Shown here: positions 6,132 through 28,627 of the stretch, piece by piece
Layout: the number at the start of each line of letters is the position of its first letter
How positions within the stretch are numbered: position 1 is the stretch's first letter
Assembly (NCBI GenBank): GCA_964611015.1
Contig: CAZSXH010000001.1
Coordinates: 1 to 28,627, forward strand
DNA: 28,627 bases
Direction: 5' to 3'
Source of the DNA: an uncultured Muribaculaceae bacterium
GTDB lineage: Bacteria; Bacillota_I; Bacilli_A; RF39; UBA660
Position numbers and translations under genes: made by a program
Notes under the pieces: generated by a model
What the model saw: the letters and a program-made list of their open reading frames with translations, nothing else
Told to the model about the DNA's origin: nothing
The model's database searches: none

Positions 6132-6450
6132 TTGTAACGAAATATTTAAATTAAAAGTTATGTTAGATGATAAGCAAATACCTTATGAATTTTATAATCA
6201 TTGTTTTAAAAATGATTATGATGGCAAGTTTGTTGAAAGTTGGCAAATTGCAGTTCCTAGTATTGTTAATACAGTAATATCAATTGTTGAGGGTGTTGGA
6301 ACTTTTGGTTACAAAGAAGATAAACTTGAAATACAAGGTTTATTAACTGATTATGAAAAAGAATTTGATTGTGTAGTTGGTAATTTATCTGCAGATGAAG
6401 TATTTAAAAGAATTGATGATTATAATATCAAAATAAATGGTAAATGGTGA
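6121..6450 (+). CDS. Hypothetical protein
   Basis: ATG 6121 after RBS aaggagg (track start 6079). Confidence 0.55.
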   Translation: MKCNCNEIFKLKVMLDDKQIPYEFYNHCFKNDYDGKFVESWQIAVPSIVNTVISIVEGVGTFGYKEDKLEIQGLLTDYEKEFDCVVGNLSADEVFKRIDDYNIKINGKW

Positions 6451-6455
6451 TTTTA

Positions 6456-7085
6456 ATGGCTAGAAGATACAGAATTAACTTTGGTCGAAAGACTGTTAAA
6501 CCATTTAAAGAAAATGATATTAATAATATGCTTGTTATATGTAAAAAAAGAAGAAATAAAGCAGAAGAAGAAAGCAATAAAGAACAACAATATCTGTGGG
6601 ATAGAAACTATATGATTTTAGTTATTGGTATGAATCTAGCATTTAGAATTGAAGATATAATTCAATTAAAAGTAGATTATTTTAAAAATGGTGGTATTTA
6701 TATTAGAGAATTTAAAACTAATAAGGAGCAATCATTTGAATTGCATCCATCACTATACAAGGATATCATGAATTATATTAATAGAAATAACTTAATTGAT
6801 GGTGAATATTTATTTAAGAGTAGAAAAGGCATGAATAAACCTTTAACTAGACAAAGGGCATGGCAAATTATTAAAGAATTAGCAGAAGAAGTAAAAGTTT
6901 CTTATCCTGTTGGTTGTCATTCATTAAGAAAATATTTTGCTAGAAGATATTATGAAGAAACTGGAGATATTATTGGTTTAAAAGAGATGTTAAATCATTC
7001 AAGCGAAAGAGTTACATTAATATATATTTGTTGGGATGATAATGATAAAAACGATAAAAGAAAGAGTTTTTATTTGGGTAGTTAA
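6456..7085 (+). CDS. Short tyrosine recombinase (XerC/integrase catalytic family)
   Basis: Catalytic set present: AFRIED (R), FKTNK (K), HSLR (H-x-x-R), LNHS (H), TLIY (Y); about 210 aa with no N-terminal arm-binding domain. Confidence 0.85.
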   Translation: MARRYRINFGRKTVKPFKENDINNMLVICKKRRNKAEEESNKEQQYLWDRNYMILVIGMNLAFRIEDIIQLKVDYFKNGGIYIREFKTNKEQSFELHPSLYKDIMNYINRNNLIDGEYLFKSRKGMNKPLTRQRAWQIIKELAEEVKVSYPVGCHSLRKYFARRYYEETGDIIGLKEMLNHSSERVTLIYICWDDNDKNDKRKSFYLGS

Positions 7086-18881: not shown

Positions 18882-21383
18882 ATGGCAAGTTCATTTGGTG
18901 GAACAGTAAAGTTGACAGGTGAAAGCGAATATGTAAAAGCATTAAGAAACATTAATAGCAATTTAAAAGCAGTTAGTAGCGAATTAAAATTGGCATCCAC
19001 AGAATTTGATAATAATGGGTCAAAAATAGGCGATTTAAGGACAAAAAATGATGCTTTAAATAAAAAGTTACAAGAAGAACAAAACATTGTTAAAACATGT
19101 GCAGAAGCCATTAAAAACTTTACTGAACAACAAACAAAAAACAAAAATGAAATTGATAAGTTAAAAAATTCATTAAGTAGTGAACAACAAACACTAGAAA
19201 AAATGAAAAATAGCACTACTGCAACAAGTTCTGAAATATCAAAACAAGAAAAGGTAGTTGCTGATTTAGAAAAAGAATTATCAAAGGCAGAAAGTAGTTA
19301 TGATAGTAATAATAGAAAGATAAATGATTACAAAGCCAAAATGAATACTGCTAAATCAGAATGTAGTGACTTATCGAAAAAAATTCAAGATAATAATTCA
19401 GTTTTAGATAAAGCAGGTAAAAGTTTTGATAATGATGCTAAATCGGTAAAAGACTTTGCCAAAGAAGAAGAAAATGCAGGTAAAAATACTCTTACATTAG
19501 GTGATTTGATAAAAGGTAACTTAATAAGTGAGGGAATTATTGCAGGTATTAAAGGGTTAGCAAGTGCCATGAAATCAGTTGGTTCTGCAATGTTAGATGT
19601 AGGAAAACAAGCAGTTAGTTCTTATGCTGATTACGAACAATTAGTAGGTGGTGTTGAAACATTATTTAAAGATAGTGCAGGTGTAGTAGAAAACTATACC
19701 AACAATGCTTATAAAACAGCAGGTATGTCAGCAAATGAATATATGGATACTGTTACTTCATTTAGTGCATCATTATTACAAAGTTTAAATAATGATACAG
19801 GTAAGAGTGCAGAATATGCAGATAGAGCAATTATCGATATGGCAGATAATGCAAATAAAATGGGTACATCAATGGATATGATACAGAGTGCATATCAGGG
19901 ATTTGCTAAACAAAATTATACAATGCTAGATAACCTTAAATTAGGTTATGGTGGTACTAAAACAGAAATGGAAAGATTAATTTCTGATGCCAACAGAGTT
20001 AAAGTAGCAAATGGAGAAATGGCAAATTTGTCTATTGATAGTTTCGCTGATATAACCGAAGCAATTCATATTATTCAAAATGAAATGGGTATCACAGGAA
20101 CAACTGCTAAAGAAGCAAACGAAACAATTTCAGGGTCAATTGCCTCTACTCAATCAGCATGGAAAAATCTTTTAACAGGTTTAGCAAATGGTAATGCTGA
20201 TTTATCAGGATTAATGAAAAATCTAGTTGATGGTGTTATGACAACTGCAAATAATATTATGCCAGTAGTAGAGCAAGTAGCAGATAGTATTGTAGAAATG
20301 ATACCAGAAGTATTAAATAACATAATTGCATATTTGCCTAAATTTTTAGAAACAGGAAGTTCTATATTAACAAAATTGATTACAGGTTTAACAAATAATA
20401 TGCCATCAATTATGACTGCAGTTATGCAGATAATAAACATGATTATAACAACTATTATTCAAAATTTACCTCAAATATTAAAAATGGGTATTCAAATGGT
20501 AGTATCTTTGGCTCAAGGAATAGCAGAACAATTACCAACTTTAATACCACAAATGATTGATGCAGTTGTATTAATGGTCGAAACATTATTAGATAATATC
20601 GATTTAATCATTGATGCAGGTATTCAATTATTGATGGGATTAGCCGATGGTCTAATTACTGCTTTGCCTGATTTAATAGATAAAATTCCTGAAATAATAG
20701 ATAAATTAATTGATGCTATTGTTAATAATTTACCAAAGTTAATTGAAGCAGGTATAACCTTAATAGTTAAATTAGCAGAGGGATTAATAAAAGCAATTCC
20801 AAAATTAGTTGCTAAAATTCCACAAATAATATCTTCTTTAATAAGTGGTATTGCTAGTTATTATGGCAAACTTGGAGAAATAGGTAAAAATCTATTAGGA
20901 AAAGTTAAAGATGGAATTACAAGTGGTATATCAGGTATGCTTAATATAGGTAAAAATCTTGTTCAAGGATTATGGAATGGTATCAGTAATGCTAAAGATT
21001 GGGTATTAGATAAAATTAAAGGATTTGGTAAGTCAATTGTGAATGGAATTAAAGGTATATTTGGTATTCATTCGCCATCAAGAGTATTTAGGGATGAAAT
21101 TGGTGTTAACTTGGCAAAAGGTATTGGTGTAGGATTTCAACAAGAAATGTCTGATGTAAATGATACTATACAAAGGGCTTTGCCAACTGATTTAGATTTA
21201 TCAACAAAAGTAAATTTGAATAAGCCAAATTCAATATTTTCATCAGATGGAAGTAAGAATAATCAAACTTCTAACAAAGTTGAAAATAATACTTATAATT
21301 TCTATTCTCCAAAAGATACACCAAGCGAGTATGCAAGACAAATTCGTAAAGAAAAACAATATTTAGATTTGGTAGGTGCTTAA
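18882..21383 (+). CDS. Tape measure protein
   Basis: 833 aa; coiled coil N-terminus, YEQLVGGVETLF...NYTMLDNLKLGYGGT block, helical repeats, GIHSPSRVF. Confidence 0.92.
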   Translation: MASSFGGTVKLTGESEYVKALRNINSNLKAVSSELKLASTEFDNNGSKIGDLRTKNDALNKKLQEEQNIVKTCAEAIKNFTEQQTKNKNEIDKLKNSLSSEQQTLEKMKNSTTATSSEISKQEKVVADLEKELSKAESSYDSNNRKINDYKAKMNTAKSECSDLSKKIQDNNSVLDKAGKSFDNDAKSVKDFAKEEENAGKNTLTLGDLIKGNLISEGIIAGIKGLASAMKSVGSAMLDVGKQAVSSYADYEQLVGGVETLFKDSAGVVENYTNNAYKTAGMSANEYMDTVTSFSASLLQSLNNDTGKSAEYADRAIIDMADNANKMGTSMDMIQSAYQGFAKQNYTMLDNLKLGYGGTKTEMERLISDANRVKVANGEMANLSIDSFADITEAIHIIQNEMGITGTTAKEANETISGSIASTQSAWKNLLTGLANGNADLSGLMKNLVDGVMTTANNIMPVVEQVADSIVEMIPEVLNNIIAYLPKFLETGSSILTKLITGLTNNMPSIMTAVMQIINMIITTIIQNLPQILKMGIQMVVSLAQGIAEQLPTLIPQMIDAVVLMVETLLDNIDLIIDAGIQLLMGLADGLITALPDLIDKIPEIIDKLIDAIVNNLPKLIEAGITLIVKLAEGLIKAIPKLVAKIPQIISSLISGIASYYGKLGEIGKNLLGKVKDGITSGISGMLNIGKNLVQGLWNGISNAKDWVLDKIKGFGKSIVNGIKGIFGIHSPSRVFRDEIGVNLAKGIGVGFQQEMSDVNDTIQRALPTDLDLSTKVNLNKPNSIFSSDGSKNNQTSNKVENNTYNFYSPKDTPSEYARQIRKEKQYLDLVGA

Positions 21384-21384
21384 T

Positions 21385-22245
21385 ATGTCAAAGAAAATAG
21401 TATGTGAAAATTATCTAAAAGAAAAAATAACATTTGAATATAAATTTCCATTTTTTCTTAAAAGTGTAGATGGATTGCATGAAGTATTGGGTGTAGTTGC
21501 AGGTATGAAAAGTGCATATGCAATAGGAGAAAATTATATTGGTACCAGTATAGAAAAAAGAAATATAATTATCAAGGGTGCTATTAGAGATGATGTCATC
21601 TCTAATAGACAAAAGTTATATCGTGTATTTCCTTTAAAATCAACTGGTACACTTTATTACTATGAAGATGGTTTAGAAAGAAAAATTGAATATAAGGTAG
21701 AATCAATTCAAATTGATAACAAAGGATTGCATAAACAATTTCAAATATCTTTAATTTGCCCTGACCCATATTTTACTGATTTAGAGAAAACACAACTTCA
21801 AATGGCAACATGGTCGCCTAACTTTAAATTCATATTAAAAATACCACACGATACTGGTATTAAATTTGGTGTAAAAAATACAACTTCTATGGCTACTATA
21901 CAAAATGACACTAATATAGAATTTGGAATGACTTTAACATTTACTGCAAATGATACAGTTGTCAATCCATCCTTATTTAATGTTGATTCAAGAGAAGAAA
22001 TGAAGATTGAAAAGACAATGGAAGCAGGAGATAAGATTATTGTAAATACTTATAGACAGAATAAAAATATTATTTATATACCTGCAAGTACAGGAATTGA
22101 AGAAAATATTAACAATTTAATGGTTTATGGCAGTAAGTTCTTGCAAGTACATCATGGAAGTAATACATATCGATATAATGCTGATACAGGAGTTGATAAT
22201 CTTGAAGCAGTTATCGAATATGTAAATGAATATGAGGCAGTATAA
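21385..22245 (+). CDS. Distal tail protein (Dit)
   Basis: Follows TMP; QFQISLICPDPYF; LQVHHGSNTYRY. Confidence 0.8.
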   Translation: MSKKIVCENYLKEKITFEYKFPFFLKSVDGLHEVLGVVAGMKSAYAIGENYIGTSIEKRNIIIKGAIRDDVISNRQKLYRVFPLKSTGTLYYYEDGLERKIEYKVESIQIDNKGLHKQFQISLICPDPYFTDLEKTQLQMATWSPNFKFILKIPHDTGIKFGVKNTTSMATIQNDTNIEFGMTLTFTANDTVVNPSLFNVDSREEMKIEKTMEAGDKIIVNTYRQNKNIIYIPASTGIEENINNLMVYGSKFLQVHHGSNTYRYNADTGVDNLEAVIEYVNEYEAV

Positions 22246-23291
22246 TGATAAAAGAATTTGATATTTATGTTTATACAAGAGATATAGAACTTATTGGTGT
22301 CATAGACTTTTTTAGTTCGTTAAGATGGCGAAGAAGATATTATGATTCTGGAGAATTTGAACTTCATATTCCACTTAATAATCAAACAGTAAAGTTTTTA
22401 AAGAAAGACAATCTAATTATTAGAGATGATGCCATAGAAGTTGGTATCATCGAAAGTTTTACTATTAATGATGAAAATGAAGATGGTGTTGAAGTTATTA
22501 TATATGGTAGATTTTTATCAAGTATATTAGATAGAAGAATAATCAAAACAAAAATAAATTTTAGTGGCGATATTTTGGCAGGAGAAAGAAAAATATTAAG
22601 TGAAATGTCGCCTTTTTCTAAATTAGAAATAAGTAAAACACCATTAAAGGGAGGTAATGTGGTATTCCAATCAACTTATAAAAATGTTTATGAATATTTA
22701 GTAACTTTAGCAAAAATATCAACAATAGCACACAGAATATCAGTTGATATACCAAATAAAAAATTTATTTATGAGAATTATCAAGGTTTAGATAGAACTG
22801 AAACACAATCAATTAATCCTAGATATGAGTTTAGTGAAGATAAATCAAATATCGAAGTGGCAGAATACACTTATAGTGCCAAAACAGAAAAGAATTATGT
22901 TTTAGTTGGTGGTCAAGGCGAAGATATAAATAGAATTATGGTTGAAGTTAAGAGTGGTAACTATGAAGATTTTGATTTAAGAGAAACTTTTGTAGATGCA
23001 AAATCAGAAAATCAAGGAGATTTATCACTTGCACAATACAAAGAAACTTTAAAAACAAAAGGTTCAGAAAAACTAATAGAAACAACAGAAAGTCTTGAAG
23101 TAACTGTATATGCAGATGACTATAAGAAATTATGGGATTTAGGTGATATTGTTAATGTAAAAAAAGAATCATGGGGAATTGCATTAAAACAAAGAATTAC
23201 TGAAATAGAAGAAACCATTGAAAATAATAATCAAAAGATTTATGCAACATTTGGAACACCATTTGTTGAAAATCTTGAAATTAATAATTAA
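22245..23291 (+). CDS. Baseplate hub/Tal (Sipho Gp37-like)
   Basis: SLRWRRRYYDSGEFELH; RETFVDA; WDLGDIV; RITEIEE. Confidence 0.82.
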   Translation: MIKEFDIYVYTRDIELIGVIDFFSSLRWRRRYYDSGEFELHIPLNNQTVKFLKKDNLIIRDDAIEVGIIESFTINDENEDGVEVIIYGRFLSSILDRRIIKTKINFSGDILAGERKILSEMSPFSKLEISKTPLKGGNVVFQSTYKNVYEYLVTLAKISTIAHRISVDIPNKKFIYENYQGLDRTETQSINPRYEFSEDKSNIEVAEYTYSAKTEKNYVLVGGQGEDINRIMVEVKSGNYEDFDLRETFVDAKSENQGDLSLAQYKETLKTKGSEKLIETTESLEVTVYADDYKKLWDLGDIVNVKKESWGIALKQRITEIEETIENNNQKIYATFGTPFVENLEINN

Positions 23292-23304
23292 GGAGGAATG
23301 AAAA

Positions 23305-24846
23305 ATGGAAAAATATAGTTTTTTTAATGATGTAGATGGAGATAGAGTTTATTATGCAGAAGATTTTGCAAGACATTTAGCAAAATATTTTACAAATGGT
23401 ATATTTAATAATAGTTGCCAAGTATTAGGTAATGCTGATGATATGGCAGTTAATGTTAGTGTTGGTTCTGCTAATATTAATGGTTACAGATATGATAATG
23501 ATGCAATTAAAACACTTTCAATAGAAAATGCTGATGGTGTTTTAAATCGTATTGATAATATTGTCATCAGATTAGATTTAACTAATAGAGTTATTACTGC
23601 TCAAGTTATAAAAGGAACATTTGCTAATAATCCAGTAGCACCCAATCTAGTGAGAACATCAACAACTTATGATTTAAGAATTGCAAAAGTATTTATTCCT
23701 GCAGGTACAACAGAAATAACACAAGATTTAATCGAGGATTGTAGATTTATAACAAGTGATTGTGGTGATGTTATATCTACTGTTGAAACACCTGATACAG
23801 AACAATTATTTATACAAATACAAGCATTATTTGATAAGTTTATCGCTGATAATACAGAGAGTTTTAACACTTGGTTTGAACATATTAAAGATAAATTAAC
23901 AACTGACCAAGCAGGTAACTTACAAAGTGAAATTGATGCAATGACACCTGATATAGAACAATTAAAAGATGATGTAGATGTTCTTCAAGAAAATATTTTA
24001 GATTTTGAACAATCAAGAACAATAAATGGTGATACAAAAGTTAATGTTTATAAACCTAAAAATGAAAAAGCAATTGAAAGCGAATCTATAAGAGTAGGTG
24101 ATTATAAATTAACTGATATAATTGGTAATAATAATGCAGGATTTCATAATTCGATTTTTAGAGGAAAAGATGTTACCAAATATTATAATGATGGTAGTTT
24201 ATATACTAGAATATCAAGTGGTAAATTTGAAGATTTATTTGTAGGTGATTATATAATTAAGAATAACATCACTTGGCGAATTGCAGGATTTGATGTATAC
24301 TTACATAAGGGCGACACCGAACTAACGAAGCATCATGCAATTATAGTGCCTGATAAACATTTAACAACTGCACAAATGAATAGTACAAATACAAGTGCAG
24401 GTGGTTATGTTGGAAGTGAAATGTATAAAACTGTACTTCCTAGTGTTTTATCAACTTATATCACACCTGTTTTTGGCAATCATGTTATAGAATATAGAAA
24501 TTTATTAACTAATTCTATAAATGCAACTGGATATAATAGATTTGGTACTAATAGTGGTTGTTCGAATGGTTGGGACTGGTATAGTCGTAAACTTGATTTA
24601 ATGAATGAAGTTCAATTATTTGGAAGTATTACATGGTCAAGTAGTGGATATGATATCGGAACTGATAATTGCCAATTACCATTATTTAGATTAGCACCTG
24701 AATATATTACTAATAGGTCTTATTGGTGTTGGTTAAAAGCCGTAACAACGGCTTCTGCTTTCGCTTATGTCCTCCGCAATGGTTATAGCAACAACAACAA
24801 TGCTTCTGGTGTGGGTGGTGTTCGCCCCTGCTTTTACATCGATTAA
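23305..24846 (+). CDS. Baseplate/receptor-binding protein, DGR target (C-terminal CLec-like domain)
   Basis: N-terminal YSFFNDVDGDRVYYAEDF...RIDNIVIRLD baseplate module, coiled coil, then a C-terminal domain ending YWCWL...GVRPCFYID that contains the VR. Confidence 0.88.
   Translation: MEKYSFFNDVDGDRVYYAEDFARHLAKYFTNGIFNNSCQVLGNADDMAVNVSVGSANINGYRYDNDAIKTLSIENADGVLNRIDNIVIRLDLTNRVITAQVIKGTFANNPVAPNLVRTSTTYDLRIAKVFIPAGTTEITQDLIEDCRFITSDCGDVISTVETPDTEQLFIQIQALFDKFIADNTESFNTWFEHIKDKLTTDQAGNLQSEIDAMTPDIEQLKDDVDVLQENILDFEQSRTINGDTKVNVYKPKNEKAIESESIRVGDYKLTDIIGNNNAGFHNSIFRGKDVTKYYNDGSLYTRISSGKFEDLFVGDYIIKNNITWRIAGFDVYLHKGDTELTKHHAIIVPDKHLTTAQMNSTNTSAGGYVGSEMYKTVLPSVLSTYITPVFGNHVIEYRNLLTNSINATGYNRFGTNSGCSNGWDWYSRKLDLMNEVQLFGSITWSSSGYDIGTDNCQLPLFRLAPEYITNRSYWCWLKAVTTASAFAYVLRNGYSNNNNASGVGGVRPCFYID
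24750..24830 (+). repeat. DGR variable repeat (VR)
   Basis: 81-bp copy of 25472-25552 with 6 mismatches (24766, 24772, 24773, 24775, 24776, 24784), all opposite TR adenines. Confidence 0.97.
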
Positions 24847-24883
24847 TCCTTAATCACACCCCCTTGTGGGGTGGGTTAAGGAT
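24846..24883 (+). promoter_or_regulatory. Hairpin/cruciform downstream of VR/IMH (DGR target-recognition element)
   Basis: ATCCTTAA 24846-24853 / TTAAGGAT 24876-24883 plus inner CACCCC/GGGGTG around a 5-nt loop. Confidence 0.75.
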
Positions 24884-24901
24884 ATCGAGGGAGGAACAAT
24901 A

Positions 24902-25456
24902 ATGAGTGTATTGAAAAGAAAAAGAAACATATCAAAAATGGAATTTTATCATAATGCGATAAAATTACGATTGATGATAACTGAATTTCTTTTGAAAGAT
25001 TTTGGAATAAAATCAAGAAGAAGAAATTTGGAATTTGCCAAAGAAGTATATGATATGGAAGATGAAGATATCTCTCAAATGGAAGATATTTTGTCTGCAT
25101 ATGATATCAAAAATAGTTTCATCGATAACTTTCCAACTTGGCTAATTGATAAAGAAAGAGATTATTTCATGGATTTATTGCGAGATATGATGAAAAATAT
25201 TTGTTCTGCAAATACAATTCACATCACGAATAAAGAAGAATACTATATGCGAAGAAACTATCAAACACAAGCCATTTGCAATTGCGAAAATCTTCTTCAA
25301 GAAATGCAATATATAATCTTTGTATGTCATCCAAATGTAGAGAAGTACATGAAATATGTTGATATGATTGAAAAAGAAATTGTGTTGTTAAAAGGTTGGC
25401 GAAAATCTGATAATAAAATCTTTAAGGAATTAGAAAATAAAGATAAACAAGGGTAA
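24902..25456 (+). CDS. avd: DGR accessory variability determinant (Avd-like)
   Basis: Between target gene and TR; helical; ...CENLLQEMQYI...EIVLLKGWRKSD resembles the Avd four-helix bundle; RBS gagggagg before ATG 24902; 184 aa. Confidence 0.8.
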   Translation: MSVLKRKRNISKMEFYHNAIKLRLMITEFLLKDFGIKSRRRNLEFAKEVYDMEDEDISQMEDILSAYDIKNSFIDNFPTWLIDKERDYFMDLLRDMMKNICSANTIHITNKEEYYMRRNYQTQAICNCENLLQEMQYIIFVCHPNVEKYMKYVDMIEKEIVLLKGWRKSDNKIFKELENKDKQG

Positions 25457-25471
25457 GGTTTGTAATTACTG

Positions 25472-25552
25472 GGCTTCTGCTTTCGCTAATGTCAACAACA
25501 ATGGTAATAGCAACAACAACAATGCTTCTGGTGTGGGTGGTGTTCGCCCCTG
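25472..25552 (+). repeat. DGR template repeat (TR)
   Basis: Intergenic AAC/AAT-rich copy of VR: GCT TCT GCT TTC GCT AAT GTC AAC AAC AAT GGT AAT AGC AAC AAC AAC AAT GCT TCT GGT GTG GGT GGT GTT CGC CCC TG. Confidence 0.97.
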
Positions 25553-25640
25553 ATTTTAACTCGCACAATGATTAGGTTAAGTACCGTTGCGATAATTAAA
25601 AGGAAACTTTATCCTGTCCGAAAGGCAAATAGATATTTTG
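25553..25640 (+). ncRNA. TR-RT spacer, likely structured 3' part of the DGR RNA
   Basis: TCGCA..AATG/CGTTGCGA stem (25561-25592); TG-T-CC-GAAA-GGCA GNRA hairpin (25615-25627) flanked by TATC/GATA. Confidence 0.45.
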
Positions 25641-25678
25641 ATACTTTTTGATAAGTCAATTAAAGTTAGGAACAAAAT

Positions 25679-26818
25679 ATGATTAATAAGATTAGTAATG
25701 CCAATGTTTTAATAAATAGTTTTTATGAAGCCAAAAAAAATTGTAGTTGGAAAAATAGTGTTCAACAATATGAAGCAAATCTCTTAAGAAATATTAGAAA
25801 AACACAAATAGAATTAAGAAGTAAGACTTATAGGCAAGGTGAGTTTTATAGTTTCTATCTATGTGAAAGAGGAAAAGAAAGATATGTTCGCTCCATTTGT
25901 TTCTATGATAGGGTTATACAAAGGGCTTTGTGTGACCAATTAAATCCCATAGTTGAACCATATCTAATACATGATAATGGTGCAAGTGTGAAGAAAAAAG
26001 GCATTGATTTTGCTAGGAGAAGAATAGAAAATCATTTGCATAAATATTATAGAAAGTATGGGAATCAAGGATATGCACTCGTTATTGATTTCAGTAAGTT
26101 TTATGATAATATACTTCATAAACCTTTAATGGATATGTACAGAGAAATTATTGATGATGAGGATATAATTAATTTAATTAGTCATTTAGTCGATAGTTTT
26201 TCTGTCGATATATCCAATTATGATAAGACAGAAACTGATTTGTTTGATTCGTTATCATATGCAAAAGCGAATACTGATAACACAGGCGAAAAGTTTATGA
26301 ATAAATCTTTGGGAATAGGTAGTCAAATATCGCAGATATCGGGCATTTATTACCCTCATGAAATGGATAATTATTGTAAAATAGTTAAAGGTATTAAGTT
26401 CTATGGAAGATATATGGATGATACTTATATCATAAGTAATAATAAAGAAGAATTAAAACAGTTACTTGAAGATATAGATAAGATATGTAAAAAGTTAGGT
26501 ATATTTATTAATAGAAAGAAAACTCAAATATTTAGATTAGATAAAGGTTTTACCTTTTTAAAAATAAAGTATAGATTAACTGAAACAGGGCATCTTGTAA
26601 GAATACCAATAAAAGGCAATTTTGTCAGAGAAAGAAGAAAGTTAAAAAGTTTTAAAAATATGCTTGATAATGGCAAAATTTCTTTTAGAGATATAGAAGA
26701 ACAATATAAGTCTTGGAAAGGAAACATATCTAAATATGATTGTCATAGAACAATCAGAAATATGGATAAATTATTTGATGATTTATTCATAAATAATAAT
26801 TCACAAAATTCACACTAA
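25679..26818 (+). CDS. DGR reverse transcriptase
   Basis: GKERYV, DRVIQRAL, DFSKFYDNI, LGIGSQISQ (SQ signature), YGRYMDD, GFTFLK; 379 aa, no endonuclease domain. Confidence 0.95.
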   Translation: MINKISNANVLINSFYEAKKNCSWKNSVQQYEANLLRNIRKTQIELRSKTYRQGEFYSFYLCERGKERYVRSICFYDRVIQRALCDQLNPIVEPYLIHDNGASVKKKGIDFARRRIENHLHKYYRKYGNQGYALVIDFSKFYDNILHKPLMDMYREIIDDEDIINLISHLVDSFSVDISNYDKTETDLFDSLSYAKANTDNTGEKFMNKSLGIGSQISQISGIYYPHEMDNYCKIVKGIKFYGRYMDDTYIISNNKEELKQLLEDIDKICKKLGIFINRKKTQIFRLDKGFTFLKIKYRLTETGHLVRIPIKGNFVRERRKLKSFKNMLDNGKISFRDIEEQYKSWKGNISKYDCHRTIRNMDKLFDDLFINNNSQNSH

Positions 26819-26875
26819 ATAAGTGATATAATGTATATAGAAGATAAGGCAATGAAAGAATTGTCTTTTTTCGTG
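26800..26875 (+). promoter_or_regulatory. Late promoter/attenuator module, copy 3 (upstream of lysis genes)
   Basis: TTCACA 26800 and 26809, TG-A-TATAAT with -10 at 26827-26832, hairpin AGGCAAT/ATTGTCT 26847-26866, T6-CGTG. Confidence 0.7.
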
Positions 26876-26903
26876 CTTTAGTAACTGGATAAGGAGGATA
26901 AAA

Positions 26904-27134
26904 ATGGAAAATAGCAAATTTCAAATTGAAGTTTTGGAAAGATTATCAGTGCTAGAAACATTGATAAAAGAACAAGACTATAAAGGTGTTAAAGAAACAA
27001 GTGAAAAAGCACTGAATATTGCCAAAAATAATGAAAGTAGAATTAATGCACTAGAAGATGGTAATAAGTGGTTAGTTCGTTTAGTTATTGGTGCAATAAT
27101 TGGTGGCATTTTAGCATTTGTATTTAAGATATAG
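26904..27134 (+). CDS. XhlA-like hemolysin/holin-associated protein
   Basis: LERLSVLET...RINALEDGNKWLVRLVIGAIIGGILAFVF: coiled coil plus C-terminal TM. Confidence 0.8.
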   Translation: MENSKFQIEVLERLSVLETLIKEQDYKGVKETSEKALNIAKNNESRINALEDGNKWLVRLVIGAIIGGILAFVFKI

Positions 27135-27149
27135 AGGGGAGGATAAAGT

Positions 27150-27347
27150 ATGAGTAATAAAGTATATGATATTTTAAAATACATTGCCCAAGTATTCTTA
27201 CCTGCATTGACAGTATTTGTAGGTGTAGTATTACAATGTTTTGAATTTAGTTATACAGATATAGTTATTACTATAATGACTGCATTTGATGCCTTTTTGG
27301 GTAGTGTATTAATGATATCTAGTAATAATTACAATAAAAAACAATAG
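27150..27347 (+). CDS. Holin (Dp-1 family-like)
   Basis: MSNKVYDILKYIAQVFLPAL...FLGSVLMISSNNYNK, two TM segments. Confidence 0.85.
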   Translation: MSNKVYDILKYIAQVFLPALTVFVGVVLQCFEFSYTDIVITIMTAFDAFLGSVLMISSNNYNKKQ

Positions 27348-27349
27348 AG

Positions 27350-27373
27350 AAAGAACTAAAAGGTTCTTTTTTT
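27350..27373 (+). terminator. Putative terminator between holin and endolysin
   Basis: AAAGAAC-taaaag-GTTCTTT plus T-run. Confidence 0.55.
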
Positions 27374-27411
27374 ATATATTCCATTAAAAGAAAGATAGAG
27401 GTGAAAAGAAA

Positions 27412-27546
27412 ATGGAAGAAAAAGAAGTAGTTGTTGAAGAAACACAAGAAGTTTTGGCAGTTGTCGAAACAGAAGAAGAAGTGCAAGAAGAGGCACTAAA
27501 TGAATTATCTAATAATAAAGGTGAGGAGGTGGAAGAAAATGAGTAA
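27412..27546 (+). CDS. 44-aa highly acidic peptide (not in ORF track)
   Basis: RBS gaggtg; MEEKEVVVEETQEVLAVVETEEEVQEEALNELSNNKGEEVEENE*; 18 Glu; overlaps the endolysin start by 8 bp. Confidence 0.65.
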   Translation: MEEKEVVVEETQEVLAVVETEEEVQEEALNELSNNKGEEVEENE

Positions 27547-28420
27547 TAGTCCTTTAGTAAACTATACTGCTATTTCACCAAATAGTAGCAATCCTAGAAA
27601 TAATAAGATTAAAAAAATCACTATTCATCATATGGCAGGTAACTTATCTGTTGAAACTTGTGGTAGAGTATTTAATGGTACAAGTCGCCAAGCATCATCA
27701 AATTATGGTATAGGTAGCGATGGTAGAGTTGGTATGTATGTTGAAGAAAAGAATAGAGCATGGACTTCAAGTTCTCCAAGTAATGACAATCAAGCAGTTA
27801 CTATTGAAGTTGCAAATGATGGTGGTGCTAATACTAATTGGCATGTATCTGATAAAGCACTTGCTAAATTGATTGATTTATGTGTTGATATTTGTAAAAG
27901 AAATGGTATTGCAAGTTTAAATTATACTGGAGATGCCAATGGTAATTTAACAAGACATAATATGTTTGCAAATACAACTTGCCCTGGACCATATTTACAA
28001 AGTAAGTTCCCTTATATTGCCGAAGAAGTAAATAAAAGATTAAATGGTTCTAGTAGTACAAATACTGCACCAACATCTGATATTTCTTCTAAATCAGTAG
28101 ATGAATTGGCAAGAGAAGTTATTGCAGGTAAATATGGTAATGGTGATGTTAGAAAGAGTGCTTTAGGTTCAAGATATAGTGAAGTTCAAGCAAGAGTAAA
28201 TGAAATACTTAAAGGAAGTACACCTGCTCAAACACCTACTAATAATGAATCAAATAATGATGAATTATTAACTCTAGTTAAAAAGACTATTAGAGGTGAT
28301 TTTGGTAATGGTGATGCTAGAAAGAAAGCACTAGGTTCAAGATATGATGAAGTTCAAAAACAAGTTGATGCCAATATCAAAGCAGGATTAACTAATTGGG
28401 ATAACATCAAATTATTTTAA
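27539..28420 (+). CDS. Endolysin: N-acetylmuramoyl-L-alanine amidase (Amidase_2) plus two Cpl-7 (CW_7) repeats
   Basis: ITIHHMAG, ASSNY, AWTS, TIEVAN, HNMFANTTCPG; VDELAREVIAGKYGNGDVRKSALG and TIRGDFGNGDARKKALG; RBS gaggagg before ATG 27539. Confidence 0.92.
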   Translation: MSNSPLVNYTAISPNSSNPRNNKIKKITIHHMAGNLSVETCGRVFNGTSRQASSNYGIGSDGRVGMYVEEKNRAWTSSSPSNDNQAVTIEVANDGGANTNWHVSDKALAKLIDLCVDICKRNGIASLNYTGDANGNLTRHNMFANTTCPGPYLQSKFPYIAEEVNKRLNGSSSTNTAPTSDISSKSVDELAREVIAGKYGNGDVRKSALGSRYSEVQARVNEILKGSTPAQTPTNNESNNDELLTLVKKTIRGDFGNGDARKKALGSRYDEVQKQVDANIKAGLTNWDNIKLF

Positions 28421-28436
28421 TAGAAATGTATGAATT

Positions 28437-28472
28437 AAAATGGTAGGATTTTAAATATTCTTACCATTTTTT
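28437..28472 (+). terminator. Rho-independent terminator after endolysin
   Basis: AAAATGGTAGGA / TCTTACCATTTT stem plus T-run. Confidence 0.8.
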
Positions 28473-28513
28473 ATTTGTTTAAAGTATAGTTAATATACGA
28501 AAAAACTTGATGT

Positions 28514-28554
28514 GTAGCCAACAGGTAGCCAACAAATACCCCATTTTGCCCCAT
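28514..28554. repeat. Short direct repeats, candidate integrase arm-type sites near att
   Basis: GTAGCCAACA x2 (28514-28523, 28525-28534); CCCCAT x2 (28539, 28549). Confidence 0.45.
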
Positions 28555-28627
28555 AAAATAAGGGACGCTAATTTACAAAACGTTAAGATTTACAAGTTTC
28601 AATGTATTGGAAAGCTCGCATTTGCGG

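Follow-up and report, generated by a model that had tools for sequence, protein, structure and literature searches.

In this work we analysed a 28627-nt stretch of DNA from an uncultured gut bacterium (contig CAZSXH010000001.1 of assembly GCA_964611015.1, hereafter the window) and describe in it a diversity-generating retroelement (DGR) that occupies positions 23305-26818. We read this cassette as a complete DGR, carried by a temperate phage of the siphovirus type from small-genome, AT-rich gut Bacilli, and put the probability of this reading at about 93%. Several features that define membership of the DGR class are found together here: a template repeat (TR) and a variable repeat (VR) whose differences are adenine-specific, a VR with AAY codons at the 3' end of its gene, a DGR-type reverse transcriptase (RT), a helper protein with an Avd fold, and a pair of initiation of mutagenic homing elements (IMH/IMH*) with a hairpin. 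Our analysis shows the anatomy of the cassette, the adenine-restricted asymmetry of its repeats, the folds of its proteins and the conserved DNA and RNA structures around them. An initial annotation, made from the sequence alone, had proposed that the locus follows the Bordetella phage BPP-1 architecture for adenine-mutagenic retrohoming, and every component that it named was tested and found. The coordinates of all features are collected in Table 1.

The most direct evidence comes from the repeat pair. When TR and VR are compared without gaps at an offset of 722, they form 81-nt copies (VR 24750-24830, TR 25472-25552) with six mismatches, and the TR base is an adenine in 6/6 cases. The mismatches lie at VR positions 24766, 24772, 24773, 24775, 24776 and 24784, and the codon changes from TR to VR are AAT>TAT, AAC>CTC, AAC>CGC and AAT>TAT. 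The templating part of TR holds 19 adenines, which make up nine AAY codons and one AGC codon, and the probability that six mismatches would all fall on 19 adenines of 81 bases by chance is 8.4e-5. The copies, the six differences and the codon changes agree to the base with those given in the initial annotation, and its arithmetic of 4^19 DNA variants and up to 15^9 x 4 peptides from these codons is correct. Homology runs on for six bases, to 24836/25558, with one further difference of A in TR (25553) to C in VR (24831), which gives TGA versus TGC; if this position is counted, 7/7 mismatches in the window are at TR adenines. The mutagenised codons correspond to residues 488, 490-492 and 494-499 of the target protein (24766-24801). 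TR and VR are the strongest direct repeat in the region 22000-28627, and a search of the 964-kb assembly for further VR or TR copies, such as remote VRs, found none, the remaining matches having E values >0.1.

The same asymmetry is found throughout the relatives of the cassette. We collected 23 related loci from IMG/VR and from metagenome-assembled genomes (MAGs) labelled as uncultured Bacilli, Tenericutes and the like, 22 of which yielded a TR/VR pair. Several of these loci lie inside contigs of 80-425 kb and are therefore prophages. Across 21 distinct pairs, the window's own included, 157 of the 162 mismatches are at TR adenines, while adenine makes up 25% of the TR bases. The substitutions at these adenines are A>G (72), A>T (55) and A>C (30), and nearly every adenine position common to the family has been changed, in 12-71% of cases. 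The TR core (...AAT GTC AAC AAC AAT GGT AAT AG[CT] AAC...) is kept in the relatives and the VRs all differ. At the protein level the C-terminal domain of the target has 676 homologues, and in the last 234 residues of 58 close homologues the nine columns of highest entropy (residues 488, 490-492, 494 and 496-499; 2.3-3.45 bits versus a mean of 0.25 elsewhere) match the nine AAY codons exactly. In the 14 full-length proteins of one 90%-identity cluster (P0036), which come from different contigs, 2 of 548 backbone columns are variable, compared with 13 of 32 at the C-terminal end; adenine-restricted VR diversification is seen here between near-identical relatives that stem from different samples. 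Among the relatives, the cluster members P0247 and P0269 have frameshifted or scrambled C-termini that begin inside the VR, probably because the assembly went wrong where the VR is heterogeneous. P0269 is also the sole named member (WP_301082340.1, hypothetical protein, Thomasclavelia cocleata).

The protein that carries the VR lies directly after the Tal gene, and its C-terminal domain can be assigned confidently, from a structure model, to a DUF6273-like C-type-lectin-type fold. The AlphaFold2 model of the last 234 residues has a mean local confidence (pLDDT) of 92.9 and a predicted template modelling score of 0.90. In a PDB-wide structural search with VIA, which is not based on Foldseek, most of the 50 matches listed are C-type-lectin-type domains. 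The top of this list is taken by the N-terminal domain of 9qa6 (Z 12.4), part of a bacterial IgA protease and named DUF6273 by the authors of that structure. It is followed by the Bacteroides fimbrial protein 4eps (Z 8.1) and Legionella Lcl (8q4e, Z 7.9), and further down by many CLEC-type domains and by the DGR target TvpA (2y3c) at Z 5.0. Mtd is not among the 50 matches listed. The C-type-lectin-type fold that the initial annotation had expected at the target C-terminus is thus borne out by the model, but the closest structural relatives are of the DUF6273 type and not Mtd. By sequence, the Pfam DUF6273 model matches the extreme C-terminus of the target weakly and below its cut-off (E 0.009), with slightly stronger matches in relatives, and searches of the PDB with the single sequence and with a profile gave no match.

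The function of this protein leaves room for a second reading, in which the DGR is real but diversifies an accessory adhesin that binds mucus, glycans or a secondary receptor, so that no switching of host range would follow. The receptor-binding role of the target comes from gene position and analogy, its N-terminal domain matches PHROGs labelled 'head protein' or 'virion structural protein', and the nearest solved fold among those listed is, as described above, part of an IgA protease. Targets with Ig-like, Hoc-like roles have been described in the literature for gut-phage DGRs. Against this, the interval between Tal and the lysis cassette is the usual place of a fibre or receptor-binding protein, and the list of open reading frames (ORFs) shows no other fibre-like gene there. 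In relatives the same C-terminal domain stands behind Phage_fiber_rpt or Mtd_N modules, and ORF23 of Lactobacillus phage JCL1032, annotated 'tail fiber protein', ends in the same domain (38% identity). We consider an accessory adhesin unlikely for these reasons, and a tail fibre or receptor-binding protein remains our preferred assignment for the target.

The RT gene adjoins the repeats, as stated in the initial annotation, with the LGIGSQISQ motif at residues 211-219 and YMDD at 245-248. It matches RVT_1 in Pfam (E 1e-21) and phrog_1423 (E 2e-78). Its best match among solved sequences is a 328-residue RT present in the entries 8ub7-8ube (E 9.5e-14, 54.5 bits over two HMMER stretches). We take this chain to be the BPP-1 RT (bRT) on the basis of its length, its molecule name and a residue numbering that matches the bRT-Avd paper on bioRxiv; no publication was found in the literature under the PDB code 8UB7. 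A Cas6-RT-Cas1 protein (E 2.7e-8) and group II intron-type RTs (3e-7 or weaker) both rank behind it. In the alignment to bRT, IGSQISQ falls on IGSLTSQ, so that the motif is of the type IGxxxSQ, as opposed to QGxxxSP in group II introns. Residues R68, I213 and Q219 align to R74, I181 and Q187 of bRT, which in the cryo-electron microscopy paper on bRT-Avd (bioRxiv) contact the template base and the incoming dNTP. The RTs of deposited phages that come nearest are those of Roseburia phage Shimadzu (39%), Acutalibacter phage Fontainebleau (37%) and Faecalibacterium phages (29-30%), and of the last group Pioen and Roos are published DGR carriers. Judged by sequence, the RT looks DGR-type, nearer to bRT than to the RTs of introns or retrons. 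Sequence searches with the RT and structure prediction for the other two proteins, checks of the kind suggested in the initial annotation, returned a DGR-type RT and a C-type-lectin-type target C-terminus, and for the helper they returned an Avd fold.

This last protein departs from the usual Avd. The only sequence match of the helper is a weak one to PHROG 3206 'Avd protein of DGR' (E 7e-6, residues 89-180), and no match was found in Pfam, in NCBIfam or in the PDB, the latter searched by single sequence and by profile. Its 213 homologues are about 180 residues long and all unnamed. A model built from 39 homologues (pLDDT 77.6) has four long helices (residues 5-31, 79-105, 111-142 and 146-183). 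Helices 1 and 2 are separated by an insert of about 45 residues (about 32-78) that is acidic (isoelectric point (pI) 4.4); the overall pI is 6.8. In the VIA search it matches 2rld (Z 13.8), 2gsc (Z 13.7) and BPP-1 Avd, 4dwl (Z 11.7), and the helper covers each of these chains end to end with a root-mean-square deviation (rmsd) of 2.0-2.5 A. Helical bundles readily give high Z scores, and 4dwl ranks sixth, after two designed helical proteins and one membrane protein. The assignment is nevertheless sound because the top two matches belong to the Avd/IVP family, 4dwl is fully covered and the gene lies in the expected position: according to the model, the helper would be an Avd-type four-helix bundle of the 23S rRNA IVP family. 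The Avd-like ORF of the initial annotation therefore stands as to its fold, but it is atypical in its length of 184 residues, its acidic insert, its near-neutral pI and its lack of a Pfam match.

The non-coding parts of the cassette are conserved as well. The VR ends in a GC-rich, IMH-like segment, and the difference between TGC in VR and TGA in TR (C24831/A25553) is identical in all 22 relatives in which it was recovered. We considered A25553/C24831 as a product of mutagenesis and rejected this, given that every relative recovered has the same difference; its constancy identifies it as a fixed IMH/IMH* marker at the end of the copied region. Copying A25553 into VR would shorten the target by five residues. 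The GC-rich ends of VR and TR (24813-24836 and 25535-25558) also hold a 6-bp hairpin, GGGTGG/TCGCCC, followed by CTG(C/A)TTTT. This is terminator-like, with two sites compared to 0.6 expected, and may reflect only the composition of the IMH.

Downstream of VR and spanning the stop codon of the target there is a hairpin, already named in the initial annotation, that is a cruciform candidate. Its DNA folding energy is -14.9 kcal/mol (z -5.5), and 0 of 200 shuffled sequences are as stable. It occurs at the same place in 13 of 13 distinct relatives, 12 of which have energies of -14.6 to -18.0 kcal/mol with outer stems of differing sequence; in the most distant relative, L027, it is shorter (-7.1 kcal/mol). 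The CACCCC/GGGGTG core is kept and the outer stems vary in a compensating way. As no T-run follows, it is not an intrinsic terminator.

The spacer between TR and RT is predicted to form a structured RNA. RNAalifold on 14 distinct relatives gave 42 consensus pairs, of which 12 show compensatory change. The covarying helices are 25561-25565/25588-25592, 25614-25619/25624-25632 (with a GAAA loop) and 25643-25651/25656-25666, and there is an outer helix at 25633-25640/25673-25680. Over the alignment 99.1% of the cells are paired, versus about 40-45% when the partners are slid, and none of 500 shuffles matches the observed covariation. A further pairing is predicted between the 3' end of TR (CCT...TTTAA; 25549-25551 and 25555-25559) and the spacer segment TTAAAAGG (25596-25603), and is reminiscent of BPP-1's duplex of template and primer (TR:Sp). 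Since this pairing is invariant, covariation lends it no support and it stays a prediction. Priming at this site would place A25553 3' of the point where the cDNA begins, and this would account for the fact that it is never transferred. An Rfam scan of 24700-26000 detected no intron or retron RNA, only a sub-threshold chance match, and a sigma-70 promoter scan around the cassette found 17 sites compared with 14.2 +/- 4.3 in shuffles, and so did not exceed the shuffled background.

There are several observations that weigh against our main reading. Firstly, the six changes in the window's VR all fall within the 5' ten adenines and none within the 3' nine (P about 0.008 if the positions are equivalent), which is unusual for a single mutagenic event; the block AGC AAC AAC AAC AAT of the VR is the same as in TR. 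This 5' bias may be due to selection, to a low-mutation event or to partial resetting. Secondly, we looked at the locus on the population level in Logan assembled contigs from four animal-gut metagenome runs (X1-X4), which contain relatives of about 96% identity. These contigs break at 24753, 24800-24831, 25488 and 25522-25552, the edges of VR and TR, and in run X2 a 108-nt node over VR has a depth of 6.9 versus 20 in the flanks. Such breaks and the low depth fit heterogeneity of the VR, and equally well breaks in a k-mer graph induced by the repeat, so that the assembled contigs of relatives give no direct evidence for current activity of the window's copy. Thirdly, the helper is weak in sequence to Avd, near-neutral instead of basic, and of a bundle type prone to high Z scores.

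From the first two of these points one could argue that the DGR was once active and is now inert in this copy, with a frozen VR whose 3' half was possibly reset in part by recombination from TR to VR. The identity with TR at the nine IMH-proximal adenine positions would fit such a history, and the Logan contigs could not show heterogeneity within a sample. Set against this, none of the three ORFs is disrupted, the RT keeps its catalytic YMDD and the residues in contact with template and dNTP, and the spacer RNA and the hairpin match those of relatives with clear VR turnover. We regard an inert copy as improbable, somewhat more so than the accessory adhesin. The remaining possibility of a chance or recombinational repeat beside a group II intron-type or retron-type RT draws on NCBIfam, which gave no DGR RT model and whose best, sub-threshold RT model is a group II intron RT/maturase (80.6 bits versus a cut-off of 300), but it is effectively refuted by the match of the RT to the 8ub7 chain, by the TR/VR pairs in relatives and by the adenine restriction of their mismatches, and neither the Rfam result nor the length of the RT (379 residues, without a C-terminus of group II maturase length) agrees with it.

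For the complete DGR that we propose, a mechanism can be suggested by analogy with BPP-1. The RT and the Avd-like helper would together bind an RNA that comprises the helper gene's 3' end, TR and the structured spacer. cDNA synthesis would be primed in the spacer against the 3' end of TR, and TR would be copied faithfully except at its adenines. The cDNA would then replace VR at the 3' end of the tail-fibre gene, with the GC-rich IMH and the downstream hairpin directing the homing. In this way nine AAY codons and one AGC codon would be rewritten on the binding face of the C-type-lectin-type domain, and the expected outcome is a phage population with differing receptor-binding tips. We infer the order of these biochemical steps and the priming site from BPP-1, and the gene position together with the same analogy suggests that receptor switching by the phage would be the pay-off.

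The comparison with the BPP-1 DGR (mtd-avd-TR-brt) shows the same order of a target with C-terminal VR, helper, TR, spacer and RT. The two systems also share adenine-only mismatches, a GC-rich IMH followed by a hairpin, the IGxxxSQ motif and equivalents of R74, I181 and Q187 in the RT, and the helper superposes on BPP-1 Avd over 107/107 residues with an rmsd of 2.1 A. The targets have the C-type-lectin fold class in common, although the domain in the window is DUF6273-like and not Mtd-like. Further differences are found in the helper, as Avd of BPP-1 is small and basic and lacks the likeness to our enlarged near-neutral protein in these respects, in the RT, where the identity is low, and in the host, which here is a Gram-positive-type gut Bacilli lineage. 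The TR of BPP-1 is 134 nt long, and with 81-87 nt that of the window is shorter. Closer relatives are found in DGRs of gut Firmicute phages (Shimadzu, Fontainebleau, Pioen, Roos, Lelie, FP_Taranis and FP_Brigit), which hold the nearest deposited-phage RTs; Fontainebleau also shares the C-terminal domain of the target (40%). For Faecalibacterium phages, DGR targets have been published in which DUF6273 is present and the VR forms its C-terminal end (PMC11792537). At the DNA level a megablast search with the cassette gave no match among deposited phages, the closest deposited RT being the one at 39%, and the lineage has so far been found only in IMG/VR contigs and in MAG prophages labelled uncultured Bacilli or Tenericutes.

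The genomic context is that of a phage. The window is the entire first contig of a MAG that is 70% complete and consists of 141 contigs. We looked for a terminal overlap of the contig and found none, so that the phage genome is not shown to be complete or circular. The cassette ORFs are all on the + strand, and the gene order is tape measure (TMP), Dit, Tal, target, DGR, XhlA, holin and endolysin. Farther upstream of the tail genes lie genes for HNH, small and large terminase, portal, protease, major head and major tail proteins. This set of head, terminase, tail and lysis genes identifies the window as a siphovirus-type temperate phage; its GC content is 28%. Several other features were observed in the window. 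A short tyrosine-integrase-like ORF (6444-7085, 213 residues, phrog_216 E 4e-44) lies amid the early genes on the same strand as the rest, and no full-length integrase was seen in the window. An ORF at 4694-5572 matches the phage 'phosphoadenosine phosphosulfate reductase' family (phrog_424, E 1e-25). An 83-nt direct repeat of 78% identity at 28120-28370 within the endolysin gene represents its two CW_7 cell-wall-binding repeats, and a hairpin with a T-run lies at 26800-26875 between the RT stop codon and the XhlA gene.

Table 1. Coordinates of the DGR cassette and of neighbouring genes in the window.
Feature	Position	Strand	Basis and remarks
DGR target, putative tail fibre/receptor-binding protein, 513 aa	23305-24846	+	Directly after Tal; ORF list and neighbours
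Variable-protein domain, residues 280-513	24142-24843	+	DUF6273-like, C-type-lectin-type fold (model)
VR	24750-24836	+	Alignment to TR; residues 483-511 of the 513-residue target
IMH-like 3' end of VR	24803-24836	+	64% GC vs 28% in the phage; ends CCCTG-C-TTTTA
Post-VR hairpin, cruciform candidate, spans stop codon	24840-24887	+	Folding, shuffles, relatives
Enlarged Avd-like accessory gene, 184 aa	24902-25456	+	PHROG match, model; true ATG at 24902 with GGAGG ribosome-binding site
TR	25472-25558	+	Alignment; templating part 25472-25552; TGA at 25551-25553
Structured spacer RNA, TR to RT	25553-25678	+	RNAalifold on relatives
DGR-type RT, 379 aa	25679-26818	+	RVT_1, phrog_1423, PDB sequence search
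Tape measure (TMP)	18882-21383	+	Pfam and PHROGs
Dit	21376-22245	+	Pfam and PHROGs
Tal, Sipho_Gp37-type	22245-23291	+	Pfam and PHROGs
XhlA	at 26904	+	Pfam and PHROGs
Holin, Dp-1-type	at 27150	+	Pfam and PHROGs
Amidase endolysin with CW_7 repeats	at 27500	+	Pfam and PHROGs

The combination of an enlarged, near-neutral helper and a short TR with its own conserved spacer RNA raises the question whether phages of small-genome gut Bacilli possess a distinct DGR sub-architecture. We find this possible but doubtful. If it were true, the complex of helper, RT and RNA would assemble unlike the bRT-Avd complex of BPP-1, for example through another RNA-binding surface or as another oligomer. The cassette is a clean case of a well-known system, with relatives that are common in metagenomes and with DUF6273 targets that are already published, and existing knowledge of DGRs is unchanged by it. 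What it adds is a hypermutation cassette that looks in working order and is reliably annotated, from a phage lineage that belongs to uncultured gut Bacilli with small genomes and has no deposited isolate phage, and one more well-documented target of the DUF6273 type. Its TR of about 85 nt, its spacer of about 125 nt with helices backed by covariation, and its enlarged helper also make it a compact natural example that could serve comparative work on the RNA-protein complexes of DGRs.

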